In this document: positions 17,106 through 27,514 of the stretch, one piece after another
How positions within the stretch are numbered: position 1 is the stretch's first letter
Layout of the letters: each line of letters starts with the position of its first letter
Sequence record: NC_102531.1
Source: a phage
DNA: 64,000 nucleotides
Direction: 5' to 3' (one strand)
Position numbers and translations under genes: made by a program
The notes under the pieces: model-generated
The model's input: only the letters and a program-made list of their open reading frames with translations
What the model was told of the DNA's origin: nothing
Databases searched by the model: none

Positions 17106-18194
17106 TTAGATAAAACGCTTGAACATAGAAGGTGATGAGATTGATGGAATCACACAAGGAAGTGCTACCTCCTCTTTCTCCAGGAAATTAATCGCAGAAG
17201 CTACACAGTCAGCCCAGTCGTCTTTTCTGTTAAATGTTGATCTTTCCCCGTTGAATTTTTCAAGTTCGGTCAGAAATGCTTCCAGAGTATCAGGATGGAA
17301 ACTGGATTTTACAATCCTTACCATTCCTTGTTGGGCAAGATTGGCAAAAGGTGAGAACCTTGTCAGTTTAGACTTGTTGGAAGGCATTGGGTCTTCTTCA
17401 ACCCTAAACCCTTCGGCAAGCAAGGATCTGGAGGAGGTTAAGAACTCACTCTTACCTGCCTGACCGGGGTCCACAGAGAATACGATTATACAATCATCAC
17501 CATCAAACTGCGCCTGTTTCCTGATGATCACATCTCGTTCACCAGCCTTTTTACAGAACTTACCTTCCAGACCTGTGGAATACCTCCCGTCATCCACGTT
17601 CTCAGGACAATAATCCCCGGACAGGTAATAAAAGCCGTCGCTATCTTTACTTACCTTAACACTGGCGGTAAAGTCAGGAAATTTATTACCGGAAGTTCTC
17701 TCGGTTCCTGCTTTATCCCATGCCCTGCAAGACACTGATCCAAGGGGTACTCTATCGGCATCACGAAGGAAAGATCTTTGAAAATAGTTTGCACCCTCAG
17801 GCTTTGCAAACCAGTTACCATGGAGAAGCTGAGCTTTTTCAAGCTCGGGCAGACCTTCAAGGAAAGCAAGGTATTCTGGGTTGTCTCTCAAGCAGACAGG
17901 ATTATCGAATATTGTTGCGCCTATAAACGAGAATGACAACGGTCTCGGCTTGATCTCTACACCCAGTCCGTTAACAGTGGTGTATTTCTCTATCAACTCT
18001 TCTTTAGAGTCTCCCCAGATAAATTCACCGTCGCGTCGGATAAAATATCTTTTCTTACCGCATTTCTCCGGATCTGGATACCCCTCATCGTCCAACCACC
18101 ACCTAACCAGTTTGGCAAGCATGTGTTCTGAATCGGGGTTACAGCTGATAACCATTCTTGATGGATACTTTGACTGAGATCGCAGACGAGACAT
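17106..18194 (-). CDS. terL: terminase large subunit, exon 2 (nuclease domain)
   Basis: 362-aa ORF; frame is open only about 12 codons upstream of the first Met, so it cannot be contiguous with the ATPase exon; follows the Walker A/B exon across an intron. Confidence 0.75.
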   Translation of the reverse strand: MSRLRSQSKYPSRMVISCNPDSEHMLAKLVRWWLDDEGYPDPEKCGKKRYFIRRDGEFIWGDSKEELIEKYTTVNGLGVEIKPRPLSFSFIGATIFDNPVCLRDNPEYLAFLEGLPELEKAQLLHGNWFAKPEGANYFQRSFLRDADRVPLGSVSCRAWDKAGTERTSGNKFPDFTASVKVSKDSDGFYYLSGDYCPENVDDGRYSTGLEGKFCKKAGERDVIIRKQAQFDGDDCIIVFSVDPGQAGKSEFLTSSRSLLAEGFRVEEDPMPSNKSKLTRFSPFANLAQQGMVRIVKSSFHPDTLEAFLTELEKFNGERSTFNRKDDWADCVASAINFLEKEEVALPCVIPSISSPSMFKRFI

Positions 18195-20638: not shown

Positions 20639-20715
20639 TGGTCTCCACGGAGTGATTCGAACACTCGACCTCCTGATCCCAAATCAGGCGCTCTACCAAG
20701 CTGAGCTACGCGGAG
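20639..20715 (-). tRNA. tRNA-Pro (anticodon UGG)
   Basis: Hand-folded cloverleaf: C1-G72 acceptor, D-arm GCTC/GAGC, anticodon loop TTTGGGA, T-loop TTCGAAT, encoded CCA. Confidence 0.8.
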
Positions 20716-20726
20716 TATTTACTATT

Positions 20727-20801
20727 TGGTGGCCCTGGGTGGAATTGAACCACCGTCTGGCGATTATGAGTCGCTTGCTTGAACCTTCCAGCTACAGGGC
20801 C
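20727..20801 (-). tRNA. tRNA-Met or tRNA-Ile2 (anticodon CAU)
   Basis: Hand-folded: acceptor GGCCCTG/CAGGGCC, anticodon loop CTCATAA, T-arm GGTGG-TTCAATT-CCACC, encoded CCA. Confidence 0.7.
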
Positions 20802-20802
20802 T

Positions 20803-20878
20803 TGGTGCTGATGGCAGGACTTGAACCTACAACCTATTGATTACAAATCAATTGCACTACCGATTGTGCTACATCAGC
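20803..20878 (-). tRNA. tRNA-Thr (anticodon UGU)
   Basis: Hand-folded: acceptor GCTGATG/CATCAGC, D-arm GCAC/GTGC, anticodon loop TTTGTAA, T-loop TTCAAGT, encoded CCA. Confidence 0.8.
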
Positions 20879-20883
20879 AAAAA

Positions 20884-20982
20884 GGTGCTAGGTGATGGAA
20901 TCGAACCACCTATGTATTCAACGACTACCTCGTCTATTTTCAGGATTAAAAATCCTCGCCCTTGCCAAAGGGCTTACCTAGC
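20884..20982 (-). tRNA. atypical tRNA-like gene (99 nt; anticodon loop UUUUUAA, putative UUU; roughly 30-nt variable region)
   Basis: Perfect 7-bp acceptor GCTAGGT/ACCTAGC, D-arm GCCC/GGGC, T-arm GGTGG-TTCGATT-CCATC, anticodon hairpin AGGA-TTTTTAA-TCCT; the region between anticodon and T-arm is far longer than in canonical type I or II tRNAs. Confidence 0.4.
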
Positions 20983-21080
20983 TCAGTATGTTGACCATGT
21001 TGCTAGTCGGCGATGACGACTGTAACATTTGATAATCCGGTTCTGCTTCCGGCTTTCGCTTAATTACAAGGTCAACAATG

Positions 21081-21171
21081 TGGCGGAGAGTAATGGAATC
21101 GAACCATCATCGAGTCATACCCAACGGGACGGTTTTCAAGACCGCTTGAGCACCATTGCTCCCTACCCTCC
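21081..21171 (-). tRNA. tRNA-Ser (anticodon UGA)
   Basis: Hand-folded type II tRNA: anticodon loop CTTGAAA, long variable arm, T-arm GATGG-TTCGATT-CCATT, encoded CCA. Confidence 0.75.
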
Positions 21172-21285
21172 TTTATAAATTATACTGATAATGACACTGA
21201 TTTTCGAGCAGTTAGTGACTAGTATAAACGACGATAAATATCAATGCCATTATCTGTATTATTTATGCATCTAAAAATATAAATT

Positions 21286-21372
21286 TGGTGGGGAGTGGTG
21301 GAGTCGAACCACCCGAGTCGCAATGACAATAGATTTACAGTCTACACCGCTACCTCTACGGGATAACTCCCC
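21286..21372 (-). tRNA. tRNA-Tyr (anticodon GUA)
   Basis: Hand-folded type II tRNA: acceptor GGGGAGT/ACTCCCC, anticodon stem-loop GTAGA-CTGTAAA-TCTAT, long variable arm, T-arm GGTGG-TTCGACT-CCACC, CCA. Confidence 0.7.
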
Positions 21373-21376
21373 AATT

Positions 21377-21451
21377 TGGCACCCCGTACTGGACTCGAAC
21401 CAGTGTCAACGGCTTAGAAGGCCGCTGCTTTATCCACTAAGCTAACAGGGC
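21377..21451 (-). tRNA. tRNA-Arg (anticodon UCU)
   Basis: Hand-folded: D-arm GCTT-AGTGGATA-AAGC, anticodon stem-loop GCGGC-CTTCTAA-GCCGT, T-arm CTGG-TTCGAGT-CCAG, CCA; two G-U pairs in acceptor stem. Confidence 0.7.
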
Positions 21452-21509: not shown

Positions 21510-21538
21510 ATATTACACTGTTAAGCAAAGTTTGTCAA
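21510..21538 (-). promoter_or_regulatory. sigma70-like promoter of the tRNA operon
   Basis: Minus strand TTGACA - 17 nt - TAATAT, about 50 nt upstream of the tRNA-Arg 5' end. Confidence 0.6.
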
Positions 21539-24388: not shown

Positions 24389-24943
24389 TTACTCCCTGCT
24401 GTCAATATCAAAACTCATTGCAATACGGTATGCCTCTTCTAATGGTAAGAGTCTCCCCCACACATCCCAACCGACATCAAGCTGCCTGCCAAACAACTGT
24501 TGTGTGGTTCCGTGAGCATGACCGAACAGTTGGACTGATCCGTGAGGCTTTCTGTTCCACTTTGCAAACTGGTAATGGCTCATACAGATCAAATTCTTGT
24601 TGTGGCGAAGCTCGTAATAATCTACAACCTCATGACCGAACTCTTTCATAATTCTGACAGTCGTCCTTGTGTCATGGTTGCCACGAACAAGAATAATATG
24701 TCCGTTCAACATATTTAGAATATCTGGAAGTAAGTTGTTGATATTCTTATCATTAGTGCACGCAATATCTCCCAAGTGGAACACAGTGTCTGCAGGTGAC
24801 ACAACAGAGTTCCACTCGGCGATGATTCCTGCATTCATACTGTCAAGATTACGATTATACTGAGATCTGTGTTTTTGACATGAATCAAACTCCATGACCC
24901 GCTGGTGGAGAAAGTGTGTGTCGCTTGTTACAAAGTATTTCAT
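24389..24943 (-). CDS. calcineurin-like metallophosphoesterase (putative RNA 2',3'-end healing phosphatase)
   Basis: Start ATG 24943 (MKYFVTSDTHF...); motifs SDTHF, GDIACT, GNHD, GHAHG match the metallophosphatase signature. Confidence 0.65.
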   Translation of the reverse strand: MKYFVTSDTHFLHQRVMEFDSCQKHRSQYNRNLDSMNAGIIAEWNSVVSPADTVFHLGDIACTNDKNINNLLPDILNMLNGHIILVRGNHDTRTTVRIMKEFGHEVVDYYELRHNKNLICMSHYQFAKWNRKPHGSVQLFGHAHGTTQQLFGRQLDVGWDVWGRLLPLEEAYRIAMSFDIDSRE

Positions 24944-24950
24944 ACATTCC

Positions 24951-25361
24951 TCATTTAAGTTTAATGCAGTTTTTAAGCTGGCGTTCCATACGATCCACAA
25001 CCCTGTCTGGAACATCATGAATGCTTTTATTACCGTGGCGGTTTTCAACCACGATCACGGTATAACTATACCCATTACTGATTGCCATGTCAATATATTC
25101 TTGCACATGTTTTTCTTTTGTAAACGTATTACTTACCACGATACGGTCGTATCCCATACGCATCATATCTTCTACGTTATCTTTGCACCATTTTGCTGCA
25201 AGTGTTACTTTACTTGCATCCCAGTTGTAATTTCCGTCATCGTCGTACCAGAACATGTCGTTCTCAAAATGTGGATACAGACCTTCTAAAGATAGCGCAT
25301 TTGCCAGTGTTGATTTGCCAGACCCTGGTAGACCACGCACGATATATAGCATTTTAGACAT
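24951..25361 (-). CDS. P-loop polynucleotide kinase-like protein
   Basis: Start ATG 25361 with GGAGGA RBS; Walker A GLPGSGKST near N-terminus, VVSNTF later; small kinase resembling the T4 Pnkp kinase domain (from memory). Confidence 0.55.
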   Translation of the reverse strand: MSKMLYIVRGLPGSGKSTLANALSLEGLYPHFENDMFWYDDDGNYNWDASKVTLAAKWCKDNVEDMMRMGYDRIVVSNTFTKEKHVQEYIDMAISNGYSYTVIVVENRHGNKSIHDVPDRVVDRMERQLKNCIKLK

Positions 25362-25461: not shown

Positions 25462-26397
25462 ATGACAAATGAGGAACGTATGATGAAGTATTTTAATGCA
25501 GACGACTTGGTTGACAAAGGTCTTGTAACCAGTAGATATTACCCAGATCTTGGGTTAAAGATCTATAAATATGCCAGAAAAGTATTTTACAACAATTTAT
25601 GGCATTTGTCCCCTCGTTTACTAGAGTGCCGAGGCATTGTTGTCGGTAATGAAGGAAATGTTGTGGCATGGCCCTTCACAAAAGTGTTTAACTTGGGAGA
25701 AAACTCCACCAACCTGCCTGACAATAAGCTTGTGACGGCGGTAGAGAAAAAGAACGGATTCCTTGGTGTGGTATCATCTCATAAAGGTGAACTATTGTTC
25801 TCAACAACCGGATCTATTGATTCTCCATATTGTAACCTCGCAAAGGAAACCATCCAGGAGCAATGTGGTAATTTAGATCTTATCAAGAAGGTTATGGGTA
25901 ATGAAAACATGACATTCATGTTTGAAATTTGTCACCCTTCAGATCCGCATATTGTTCAGGAAGATCATGGCGCATATTTGATAGGTTGCAGATATAATGA
26001 TTCTGGAATAATGCTACCAGAGGCAGCTTTAGATGGGATTGCCAAATACCTTGGTGCAAAACGTCCTCACACTGTGCGTGAAATTCCGTTCAGCTATGCA
26101 AAAGAATTAGCTGCAGAAACAAGAGGCGAAGGGTATATGATCCGTAAGCCTTACTACCCTTATGACCTGCAGCTGAAGATCAAGTCTCCATACTATCTGG
26201 CACGGAAGGCCGTAATGAGGTGTAAAGCTTGGAAGATTTGGGATGATGATATCTTTAAACGTGTTGACGAAGAGTTTTACGGCATGGTAAACTTCATTCG
26301 TAGCAATTACACAGAAGATGTGTGGAACTGTCTCCTGGAGCAGGAACGCCGCGAGATACTTGACTGCTATTTCCACAACGAGGACTATATGCAATGA
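25462..26397 (+). CDS. RNA ligase, T4 Rnl1 family
   Basis: LLECRGIVVGNEGNVVAWPFTKVFNLGEN and EKKNGFL parallel T4 Rnl1 ALECRGIMFE...KFFNLNEN and KEDGSL (recalled); alternative start ATG 25480 has the better RBS. Confidence 0.75.
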   Translation: MTNEERMMKYFNADDLVDKGLVTSRYYPDLGLKIYKYARKVFYNNLWHLSPRLLECRGIVVGNEGNVVAWPFTKVFNLGENSTNLPDNKLVTAVEKKNGFLGVVSSHKGELLFSTTGSIDSPYCNLAKETIQEQCGNLDLIKKVMGNENMTFMFEICHPSDPHIVQEDHGAYLIGCRYNDSGIMLPEAALDGIAKYLGAKRPHTVREIPFSYAKELAAETRGEGYMIRKPYYPYDLQLKIKSPYYLARKAVMRCKAWKIWDDDIFKRVDEEFYGMVNFIRSNYTEDVWNCLLEQERREILDCYFHNEDYMQ

Positions 26398-26752: not shown

Positions 26753-27514
26753 ATGCGACGACTGATCATTATCTCCGGTGCTGGTTTGAGCGCTGAATCT
26801 GGTATCCCCACTTTCCGGTCTGGTGGCACTGCAATGTGGGAGAATTTCAGCATCAATGAGGTGTGTAACATCCACACCTTCGCCAAGAACTACTATAAGG
26901 TGCATGACTTTTACAATGCACGACGTGTAGCTCTGGGCAGTGTTGATCCTAACCTTGCACATCTCCGGATCGCTGAGTGGTATTCCCGCTGGTCTGGTCG
27001 TGTGATCAACATTACCACCAATGTGGATGATTTGCTGGAGCGTGCTGGTGTAAAACATGAAGATATTTTACATGTCCACGGGTATTTGCCAGAAATAGTC
27101 TATGAGGACGATGAAGGAAGTAACGTTATTAAGGACATTGGATACTCTGAGGTAGATGCAGGAAAGTATACCTGGGTTAAGCCTAATGTAGTGTTCTTCG
27201 GAGAAGTAGCTCCGAAGTATACAGACATGTACGACCTGTTGACTTCCCTTACGAGTAATGATATGGTTATCCTTGTAGGGTGTTCCAACACAGTTATCAA
27301 TTTTAACTGGGAGCTATTCCCTGCCTGCAATAAGGGAACCAAACTACTGATCGTTAACAAATACGACTCACAGCATCTAGAGGAGAATGGCATTTCACGT
27401 AGTGATATTTACCAATATGAGGATCGCGGCATCCCAGTTTGGTTTAACGGGGCGGTTGATGCTTTCTCTGATAAAACATTCATTGAGATCGTAGAAAACT
27501 TTATGGAACTTTAA
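26753..27514 (+). CDS. Sir2 (sirtuin)-family NAD-dependent enzyme, no recognisable Cys4 zinc module
   Basis: GAGLSAESGIPTFRSGG, TTNVDDL, HVHG, VVFFGE and VGCS line up with sirtuin Rossmann/catalytic motifs; no CxxC pairs between the HG and FGE motifs. Confidence 0.7.
   Translation: MRRLIIISGAGLSAESGIPTFRSGGTAMWENFSINEVCNIHTFAKNYYKVHDFYNARRVALGSVDPNLAHLRIAEWYSRWSGRVINITTNVDDLLERAGVKHEDILHVHGYLPEIVYEDDEGSNVIKDIGYSEVDAGKYTWVKPNVVFFGEVAPKYTDMYDLLTSLTSNDMVILVGCSNTVINFNWELFPACNKGTKLLIVNKYDSQHLEENGISRSDIYQYEDRGIPVWFNGAVDAFSDKTFIEIVENFMEL

Follow-up and report, generated by a model that had tools for sequence, protein, structure and literature searches.

A conserved tRNA-like RNA with an enlarged variable region in the tRNA operon of rV5-like phages and other Vequintavirinae

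The DNA analysed here (the window) is a 64,000-nucleotide (nt) stretch of sequence record NC_102531.1, from an rV5-like coliphage of the genus Vequintavirus (the 961 base pairs (bp) around the element described here share 99.7–99.8% identity with Escherichia phages V5, AlexBoehm and numerous relatives). Its transfer RNA (tRNA) operon carries, between tRNA-Ser and tRNA-Thr, a 99-nt element with the outline of a tRNA and a greatly enlarged variable region. We show that this element is a genuine, structurally constrained tRNA-like RNA specific to the subfamily Vequintavirinae, that its family is distinct from ordinary tRNAs, and that the anticodon of the family is not conserved. The operon was delimited with ARAGORN and Rfam and contains the following features:

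20639..21451 (-): tRNA operon carrying the element (ARAGORN and Rfam)
21538..21510 (-): sigma-70 promoter TTGACA-17-TAATAT, 5' of tRNA-Arg (consensus scan, 10/12 matches; P(tRNA) in the rV5 record)
21451-21377 (-): tRNA-Arg(UCU) (ARAGORN and Rfam)
21372-21286 (-): tRNA-Tyr(GUA) (ARAGORN and Rfam)
21171-21081 (-): tRNA-Ser(UGA) (ARAGORN and Rfam)
20884..20982 (-): tRNA-like gene, 99 nt as called (ARAGORN, Rfam tRNA model, family covariance model R1)
20878-20803 (-): tRNA-Thr(UGU) (ARAGORN and Rfam)
20801-20727 (-): tRNA-Met/Ile2(CAU) (ARAGORN and Rfam)
20715-20639 (-): tRNA-Pro(UGG) (ARAGORN and Rfam)

An earlier note had placed the element at 20884-20982 between tRNA-Thr and tRNA-Ser; both ARAGORN and the sequence bear this out and assign it to the minus strand. 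The note's list of members (Pro, Met/Ile, Thr, the element, Ser, Tyr, Arg) is also right, but transcription runs the other way, in the order Arg, Tyr, Ser, element, Thr, Met/Ile2(CAU), Pro, from the consensus promoter that it had noticed and that is annotated as P(tRNA) in rV5. ARAGORN, the kind of software check that had been suggested, calls a gene at exactly 20884-20982(-), with the amino acid given as '???' and the anticodon as 'atcc'. We rejected this four-base anticodon as a software artefact, since the alternative all-A:U stem that it implies is not conserved in the homologues. The Rfam tRNA model (RF00005) matches the element at 35.5 bits (gathering threshold 29), with a 26-nt insertion in the variable region and two anticodon-stem positions flagged as unpaired, and our covariance model of the family, R1, matches it at 105.3 bits (E = 1.5e-25).

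Position i of the RNA corresponds to window coordinate 20983 - i, so that the 5' end is at 20982 and the 3' end at 20884. The RNA reads GCUAGGU AA GCCCUUUGGCAAGGGC G AGGA UUUUUAA UCCU GAAAAUA GACGAGGUAGUCGUU GAAUACAUA GGUGGUUCGAUUCCAUC ACCUAGC A CC, followed by U, and is divided as follows:

20976..20982 (-): acceptor stem, 5' strand GCUAGGU (partner 20887-20893; 7/7 Watson-Crick pairs with ACCUAGC)
20958..20973 (-): D arm, GCCCUU-UGGC-AAGGGC (read from the sequence)
20942..20956 (-): anticodon-like hairpin (hairpin 2), AGGA-UUUUUAA-UCCU (4-bp stem between invariant G26 and G42)
20935..20941 (-): junction strand J1, GAAAAUA, unpaired (no partner in the RNAalifold prediction)
20920..20934 (-): hairpin 3, GACGA-GGUAG-UCGUU, 5 bp, in the position of the variable arm (folding of variants)
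20911..20919 (-): junction strand J2, GAAUACAUA, unpaired (variant alignment)
20894..20910 (-): T arm, GGUGG-UUCGAUU-CCAUC (canonical T-psi-C loop sequence)
20884..20893 (-): acceptor 3' strand ACCUAGC, discriminator A and CC (read from the sequence)

The acceptor stem is perfect, as the earlier note had said. The D and T arms that it called normal are there too, with a canonical sequence in the T loop and, in the D loop, the GG that forms part of the elbow. A8 and A9 precede the D arm where canonical tRNAs have U8. The D arm itself allows two readings: its stem has 4 bp and its loop 8 nt, or, with two more pairs closed, 6 bp and 4 nt. The 7-nt loop UUUUUAA that had been read in the anticodon position (U32 U33 U34 U35 U36 A37 A38 if open) is present in the sequence, but it requires a stem of just four Watson-Crick pairs, next to a G-G juxtaposition, and the predicted minimum free energy fold instead adds two U:A pairs to give 6 bp and a UUU triloop. 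The gap of about 30 nt reported between the anticodon stem and the T arm measures 31 nt in rV5 and 39–40 nt in Seunavirus. No CCA is encoded in the window copy (the base after CC is U), whereas all six neighbouring tRNAs encode one. The minimum free energy of the element is -34.2 kcal/mol (z = -3.66), and none of 200 shuffled sequences folds as well.

To assemble homologues, BLAST and motif scans were run on phage, viral-contig and metagenome collections. A first viral scan with the D-arm motif TTTGGCAAGGNCGAGG returned mostly chance hits among the matches listed, and patterns based on the junctions were used instead. This gave 30 distinct variants spanning five Vequintavirinae genera; by GenBank taxonomy they come from Vequintavirus, Seunavirus, Mydovirus and Henunavirus, together with phage Av-05 (which we take to represent Avunavirus) and unassigned metagenomic contigs. 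R1 separates the family cleanly, with members at 97–119 bits and every ordinary tRNA at 29 bits or less; the next-best matches are usually class II tRNAs (23–29 bits), and each searched stretch of a related genome holds one copy of the element. At E < 0.1 no Rfam family is matched by the Seunavirus and Mydovirus copies, and the Hena1-type and Av-05 copies go to the tRNA-Sec model, at scores under its threshold. The element always lies within a tRNA cluster, beside or near tRNA-Thr.

It is absent from phage phi92 of the Stephanstirmvirinae (45–95 kb searched) and from Certrevirus CR3 (40–149 kb searched), both searches including the annotated tRNA cluster, and from the T4 tRNA region, including the species 1 and 2 stable RNAs. 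A junction-motif scan of 185,579 bacterial and archaeal genomes, one per species, gave 21 matches, all due to chance, mostly in a Bacteroides gene and none with a cloverleaf, so the family appears to be confined to phages.

In the alignment of the 30 variants, 630 of 630 base-pair cells form standard pairs and 10 of the 21 pairs show two-sided compensatory change; control structures shifted by 1–3 columns pair in 33–51% of cells. RNAalifold recovers the same four helices de novo, unguided. The seven acceptor pairs are kept in 30/30 variants, with two-sided compensation at five of them, and the five T-stem pairs are likewise kept in 30/30, pair 3 covarying between U:A and C:G. Pairs 11:24, 12:23 and 13:22 of the D stem covary; pairing of U14 with A21 and of U15 with A20 lies beyond the reach of covariation because these positions are invariant. 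In the anticodon-like stem, pairs 27:41 and 30:38 (element positions) covary among clades as A:U, U:A, C:G and G:C, and the fourth pair is A:U, U:A or C:G depending on the clade. The elbow pair joins a D-loop G (20965) to a T-loop C (20903) and is G:C in 17 and U:A in 8 of 25 variants, so that the RNA takes up a true L shape.

In the enlarged variable region, the J1 core G(A/U)AAA is nearly invariant (GAAAA in 29/30 variants, GUAAA in 1/30). In J2, AUACAUAGG, which leads into the T stem, is identical in 30/30 variants, and AUACAUA with the following GG is invariant, both to be read with the caveat that they were partly enforced by the search patterns. Hairpin 3 between them is the most variable module, with three unrelated forms of 15 to ~25 nt; all 15 variants folded are predicted to form some kind of hairpin here (a weak one in Ro1), and in Av-05 it shows a compensatory change from A:U to G:C. 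Elsewhere, U7, A8, G10, U14, U15, the first loop G, A20, A21, C25, G26, two G:C pairs of the anticodon-like hairpin, A37 and the T arm are invariant or nearly so. The window copy carries the whole set that defines the family: the cloverleaf, G(A/U)AAA, a hairpin, the AUACAUAGG module and a family-level R1 score. A comparison by eye showed no fit of the junction strands to the hammerhead core, the kink-turn, the loop E/sarcin-ricin motif or the 11-nt GAAA receptor. Neither these strands nor the loops of hairpins 2 and 3 have a complement longer than 6–7 nt elsewhere in the operon transcript.

Conservation was also measured within Vequintavirus, over eleven operons. Of the columns of the element 6% vary, and its mean pairwise difference is 0.015, about five times lower than that of its flanking spacers (0.072 and 0.079), which places it with the best-conserved parts of the operon; the neighbouring tRNAs differ by 0.002 (Met), 0.028 (Thr), 0.051 (Ser) and 0.072 (Tyr). 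The changes seen are in hairpin-3 loop bases, from G:U to G:C in the T stem and from U:A to U:G in the acceptor stem. This is not how a decaying pseudogene behaves. The earlier note's phrase "a tRNA with an insertion" is correct as anatomy, and the insertion between the anticodon-like stem and the T arm is itself a conserved module, not debris.

The anticodon-like loop follows a different pattern. It is UUUUUAA in the rV5 clade, UUUAUAA in the Av-05 clade, NAUCAAR (UCA preceded by A33) in the Erwinia-phage and related metagenomic clades, and an 8-nt CCAUCCAG, in four variants, in Seunavirus and Mydovirus. The anticodon UUU proposed from the window alone is therefore a property of the rV5 clade and gives way to UAU, to UCA with A33 and to the 8-nt loop elsewhere. 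Position 33 is U, A or C among copies, and those with U33 are restricted to the rV5 and Av-05 clades. A discriminator A is peculiar to the rV5 clade, the others having U or C. Every clade encodes U-CCA apart from rV5 and Av-05, whose 3' ends read A-CC-U, A-CA-U, U-ACA or C-ACA. Between the sister clades Av-05 and rV5, the middle anticodon base and the discriminator have changed while compensatory changes have kept the fold.

Judged as a canonical tRNA, the element has the right body (7-bp acceptor, D arm with GG, 5-bp T stem, T-psi-C loop, elbow). Its anticodon arm lacks the 5-bp stem and, across the family, a constant 7-nt loop, a constant U33 and a fixed anticodon, A37 alone being invariant, and its variable region of 31–40 nt falls outside both standard lengths (4–5 nt or ~13–24 nt). 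The set expected of a tRNA-Lys(UUU), U34/U35/U36/A73, is found in the rV5 clade only. Because the loop differs among clades, lysine decoding cannot be the shared function of the family. Mydovirus and related phages, moreover, carry 14 to 24 canonical tRNAs in the stretches examined, tRNA-Lys(UUU) included, besides the element, which thus fills no anticodon gap there.

Several features around the element bear on its possible setting. Three genes encoding a ligase, a phosphoesterase and a SIR2-family protein lie 3.4–6.6 kb from the operon:

24389-25048 (-): calcineurin-type metallophosphoesterase gene, 3.4 kb from the element
25462-26397 (+): Rnl1-type RNA ligase gene (PF09511, E = 4.9e-15), 4.5 kb from the element
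26753-27514 (+): SIR2-family protein gene (E = 5.9e-27)

The ligase and phosphoesterase resemble an RNA-repair pair and are adjacent in Phapecoctavirus records. Enzymes of these types repair anticodon-nuclease damage in T4, and the presence of both near the operon suggests that tRNA cleavage or damage is a selective pressure on these phages. We considered the ligase as a dedicated partner of the element and rejected the idea, since its distribution is far wider than that of the element, extending for example to Phapecoctavirus and to Pseudomonas and Vibrio phages.

Two spacers of the operon are themselves structured. The 114-nt spacer between tRNA-Tyr and tRNA-Ser (21172-21285(-)) holds a long, nearly perfect inverted repeat, GAUAAUGGCAUUGAU / AUCAGUGUCAUUAUC, folds at -26.2 kcal/mol (z = -4.45, 0/200 shuffles as good) and contains a promoter-like TCGAAA-17-TATAAT at 21207..21179; it may serve for processing by RNase III, act as an internal promoter or encode a further small RNA. 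The 98-nt spacer between tRNA-Ser and the element (20983-21080(-)) has an 8-bp closing stem, UGUUGACC/GGUCAACA, with two small hairpins inside (z = -2.57), is about five times more variable than the element among Vequintavirus genomes and has no BLAST counterpart in Seunavirus loci. A terminator scan flags the D arm followed by GAGGAUUUUU (20958-20973(-)) and the T arm plus acceptor strand followed by GCACCUUUUU (20889-20912(-)). As the U runs exist in the rV5 clade only, these flags probably arise incidentally from the U-rich loop and the spacer that follows the element, although partial termination 3' of the element may occur.

An unconserved "anticodon" combined with a large conserved insertion makes it probable that the element is a tRNA look-alike with another job. 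The reading we favour, at slightly short of an even chance, is a non-decoding tRNA mimic that engages a tRNA-binding protein. A stable, tRNA-shaped RNA would be co-transcribed with the six phage tRNAs from the single promoter and presumably excised by tRNA-processing enzymes, with RNase P cutting at the 5' end, trimming at the 3' end and, in the rV5 clade, CCA presumably completed after transcription. The retained body (7-bp acceptor stem, D/T elbow, T arm) would serve processing, stability and docking, and the G(A/U)AAA and AUACAUAGG strands that replace the variable region around a swappable hairpin would make the specific contact with the partner. The mimic would thereby occupy a tRNA-binding protein of host or phage, the likeliest target being a tRNA-targeting defence enzyme or a tRNA-handling enzyme. 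Expression, processing, the absence of decoding and the nature of the binding partner are what we infer from these comparisons. Of the options raised in the earlier note, a decoy tRNA is the best-fitting, again by inference.

A narrower form of the proposal, that the mimics are a class that uses the variable-arm module to block a host tRNA-recognising enzyme, most attractively an anti-phage nuclease or transferase, is possible but on balance doubtful. If it were so, the fast-changing anticodon-like loop and hairpin 3 would record an arms race. As a variant, the rV5 clade could have turned such a mimic into a nuclease-proof tRNA-Lys.

Several points weigh against the mimic. Its expression, processing and binding are deduced from sequence, and its partner protein is hypothetical, the Rnl1-type ligase not being co-distributed with the element. 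The rV5 copy combines U33, UUU, A37 and A73, which is the full E. coli LysRS identity set, in a phage where ARAGORN finds no other tRNA-Lys. In the most diverse clade, loop positions 33–37 (AUCAA) are invariant and positions 32 and 38 vary, which is how a real anticodon loop behaves. Finally, a decoy acting stoichiometrically would need very tight binding to be more than a weak defence against a catalytic enzyme.

The LysRS identity set leads directly to the alternative that the rV5-clade element, for all its aberrant structure, functions as a tRNA-Lys(UUU) charged by LysRS. It would supply lysine decoding when PrrC, RloC or the AriB nuclease of PARIS cut host tRNA-Lys, and its odd anticodon arm and giant variable arm would make it a poor nuclease substrate, in parallel with T5 tRNA-Lys. 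We regard this reading as unlikely. The host tRNA-Lys has the loop CUUUUAA and A73, close to the UUUUUAA loop (U33, U34–U36, A37, A38) and discriminator A of the rV5 copy. Annotations based on tRNAscan name the element tRNA-Lys, the element-free relatives phi92 and CR3 have the canonical tRNA-Lys that rV5 lacks, and the Rnl1-type ligase and phosphoesterase are close by. There is also the precedent of a phage tRNA-Lys that neutralises PARIS (PMC11464382). On the other side stand the four Watson-Crick pairs of the anticodon stem with its predicted triloop, A8 in place of canonical U8, the 31-nt variable region and a CCA that is unencoded, unlike in the six neighbours. R1 scores canonical phage tRNA-Lys at 15–16 bits only, so the element is not derived from tRNA-Lys. 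In Av-05, UAU and a U or C discriminator go with a fold kept by compensation: the selected function common to rV5 and Av-05 is hence not lysine decoding.

The UCA loops raise a second alternative, which we hold to be improbable: that the family consists of suppressor tRNAs, class-II-like or Sec-like, charged independently of their anticodon, by SerRS through the long arm or by CysRS through U73 with C35 and A36, the Erwinia-phage and related forms reading UGA and the rV5 copy being an anticodon-shifted descendant. The N-A-UCA-A-R loop, with positions 33–37 invariant in the most diverse clade, differs from that of E. coli selC (CUUCAAA) mainly at position 33. The possible 6-bp D stem with a 4-nt loop, the long arm, the U-CCA encoded in every copy outside the rV5 and Av-05 clades and the tRNA-sup(tca) label in Erwinia phage Hena1 point the same way, and tRNA-Sec is the best Rfam model for the Hena1-type copy (37.6 bits). 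That score, however, does not reach the gathering threshold (47), position 33 carries A instead of the U33 of working tRNAs, the stems measure 7 bp (acceptor) and 5 bp (T) against 8 and 5 in tRNA-Sec, and the Seunavirus and Mydovirus loops have 8 nt. Charging that ignored the anticodon would mistranslate with UUU or UAU. TGA stops are not avoided in UCA-form loci (9/47 open reading frames (ORFs), against 16/73 and 24/79 in other clades), although the ORFs are few and GC content confounds this crude test.

Slightly lower still we place the possibility that the element is a processing or punctuation handle for RNase P and 3' processing, without function as a free RNA. Its constant position inside tRNA clusters, beside or near tRNA-Thr, would suit such a handle, and the long structured spacers 5' of it in rV5 would need cleavage sites. 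But an acceptor stem, T arm and elbow would suffice for this, leaving the junction strands, the anticodon-like hairpin and hairpin 3 unexplained, and the neighbouring tRNAs already provide RNase P sites. A decaying tRNA pseudogene with an insertion, also on the earlier note's list, finds some echo in the unencoded CCA, the atypical anticodon arm and the disagreeing software calls, but it is refuted for practical purposes by the roughly fivefold lower variation than in the spacers, by complete pairing with many compensatory changes across five genera, and by 89 phage records that carry a copy at least 99% identical.

The disagreement over what to call the element is plain in the databases. The rV5 genome record and paper list six tRNAs and omit it; other records label it tRNA-Lys (AAA, tRNAscan-based), tRNA-Stop(tta)/TERM, tRNA-OTHER or tRNA-???(atcc), Hena1 has it as tRNA-sup(tca), and some overlay a "hypothetical protein" coding sequence on it. 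Our literature search found no paper that describes or discusses it. We conclude that it should be annotated as a single tRNA-like RNA family, neither tRNA-Lys nor suppressor tRNA. The rV5-like, Seunavirus and Mydovirus phages are widely isolated and used in biocontrol or therapy of E. coli, Salmonella and Klebsiella; a "suppressor tRNA" label could raise needless safety questions, and a "tRNA-Lys" label puts wrong numbers into codon-usage studies. Treating all copies as one family allows a clean annotation and supplies a covariance model. If the element does act as a mimic against tRNA-targeting immunity, an RNA-based counter-defence would be added beside canonical phage tRNAs and proteins; if it decodes, a bacterial-type tRNA would be able to work with four pairs in the anticodon stem and 31–40 nt in the variable region, which would stretch the accepted structural limits of tRNAs.

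Other observations were made along the way. Eighteen phage records labelled Campylobacter jejuni (within MG065635-MG065677, "Campylobacter phage C15, D1, A141 ...") carry the E. coli rV5-type operon; those listed are 99.6–99.7% identical to it and their genome sizes are mostly rV5-like, so that the host labels look wrong or the preparations contaminated. In Seunavirus, a ~190-nt non-coding stretch directly 3' of the element is 91–94% conserved (L004 1306-1496, L007 1239-1429, L006 1424-1613). It opens with the tRNA-like GCAUUAGCUCAG, its first ~65 nt are recognisable in Av-05 (partly, L135 2809-2874), and some records place small "hypothetical proteins" on it; it may be a second unannotated structured RNA. 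ARAGORN also calls non-standard tRNAs in relatives, "tRNA-??? (agat)", "(ga)" and "(ggca)" (L005 1118-1194; L159 524-598; L133 5383-5457; L131 5994-6079), of which the agat and ga kinds lie directly between tRNA-Thr and the element and are tRNA-Ile, tRNA-Ser or tRNA-Arg in GenBank depending on the phage. A metagenomic contig of 151,860 bp (L174 7862-7934) has a tRNA with the amber-reading anticodon CUA, called "tRNA-Pyl" by ARAGORN with the call cut at the locus end, 1.5 kb from an element copy with a UCA loop. CR3 is annotated with a tRNA nucleotidyltransferase, a second nucleotidyltransferase and a histidyl-tRNA-synthetase fragment (L190 15056-15649, 17072-18193, 20122-21438); as CR3 has such enzyme genes and no element, Vequintavirinae genera differ in their tRNA-handling genes. 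In the window, the ORF of the large terminase subunit (17106-18194(-); rV5 ORF64ABC) spans only part of two terminase domains, and the rV5 annotation joins three pieces, which suggests intervening sequences in this gene.

Among known RNAs, the class II tRNAs (Ser, Leu, Tyr) share with the element the 7-bp acceptor, 5-bp T stem, UUCGAUU T loop, D-loop GG in the elbow and an extra hairpin between the anticodon and T arms. Their variable region is ~13–24 nt, whereas that of the element is 31–40 nt, with 7 and 9 unpaired conserved bases beside the hairpin. The element further departs from them in its 4-pair anticodon stem, unfixed loop length and sequence, variable discriminator, and an exchange of the usual U8 and A14 for A8 and U14. 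The selenocysteine tRNA, tRNA-Sec (RF01852), has in common with it the possible 6-bp D stem with a 4-nt loop and the long extra arm, and with the Erwinia-phage clade the UCA-A-A loop. It differs in having 8+5 stems against 7+5; the element has A33 and a U discriminator, and the rV5 copy UUU. UCA is confined to one clade, and the scores, the 37.6 bits of the Hena1-type copy and 29.4 bits for Av-05, stay under the threshold of 47. No selenocysteine machinery was seen, although no search was aimed at it.

The T4 species 1 (rnaC) and species 2 (rnaD) RNAs are, like the element, small stable RNAs inside a phage tRNA cluster, and rnaC has a T-arm-like terminal hairpin, CCGGGUUCGAAUCCCGG; unlike it, they are 139 and 119 nt long and have no full cloverleaf. 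Homology was rejected: with filters off, R1 gives a partial match to rnaC at 8.9 bits (E = 0.28) and no full-length match to rnaD.

Other RNAs reuse the tRNA body for protein binding or non-standard decoding, among them YrlA, the Bacillus cereus tRNA-Other, the tRNA-like domain of tmRNA and the allo-tRNAs. YrlA, whose ends are on the anticodon side, has no match on the element (RF02553; the sole match, 25 bits, is over two other tRNAs). ARAGORN makes no tmRNA call, and the Ala identity pair G3:U70 is absent from the element. Allo-tRNAs have 8/4 or 9/3 acceptor/T stems, an arrangement not found in it.

Phage tRNAs with anti-defence roles are known from T5, whose tRNA-Lys acts against PARIS and tRNA-Tyr against Retron-Eco7 (PMC11464382; bioRxiv 10.1101/2023.03.15.532788). 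They resemble the element in being phage-encoded within tRNA clusters; the Lys-like loop of the rV5 copy and the RNA-repair-type ligase carried by the rV5-like phage add to the likeness of setting. The T5 tRNAs are canonical and decoding, with small changes that block cleavage, whereas the element is non-canonical in structure and has a clade-specific anticodon. Collectively, the element fails the defining tests for membership of each of its nearest known systems, which are class II tRNAs and tRNA-Sec by anatomy, the T4 species 1 and 2 RNAs by genomic setting, and, by possible role, the anti-defence phage tRNAs and the non-translating tRNA look-alikes.

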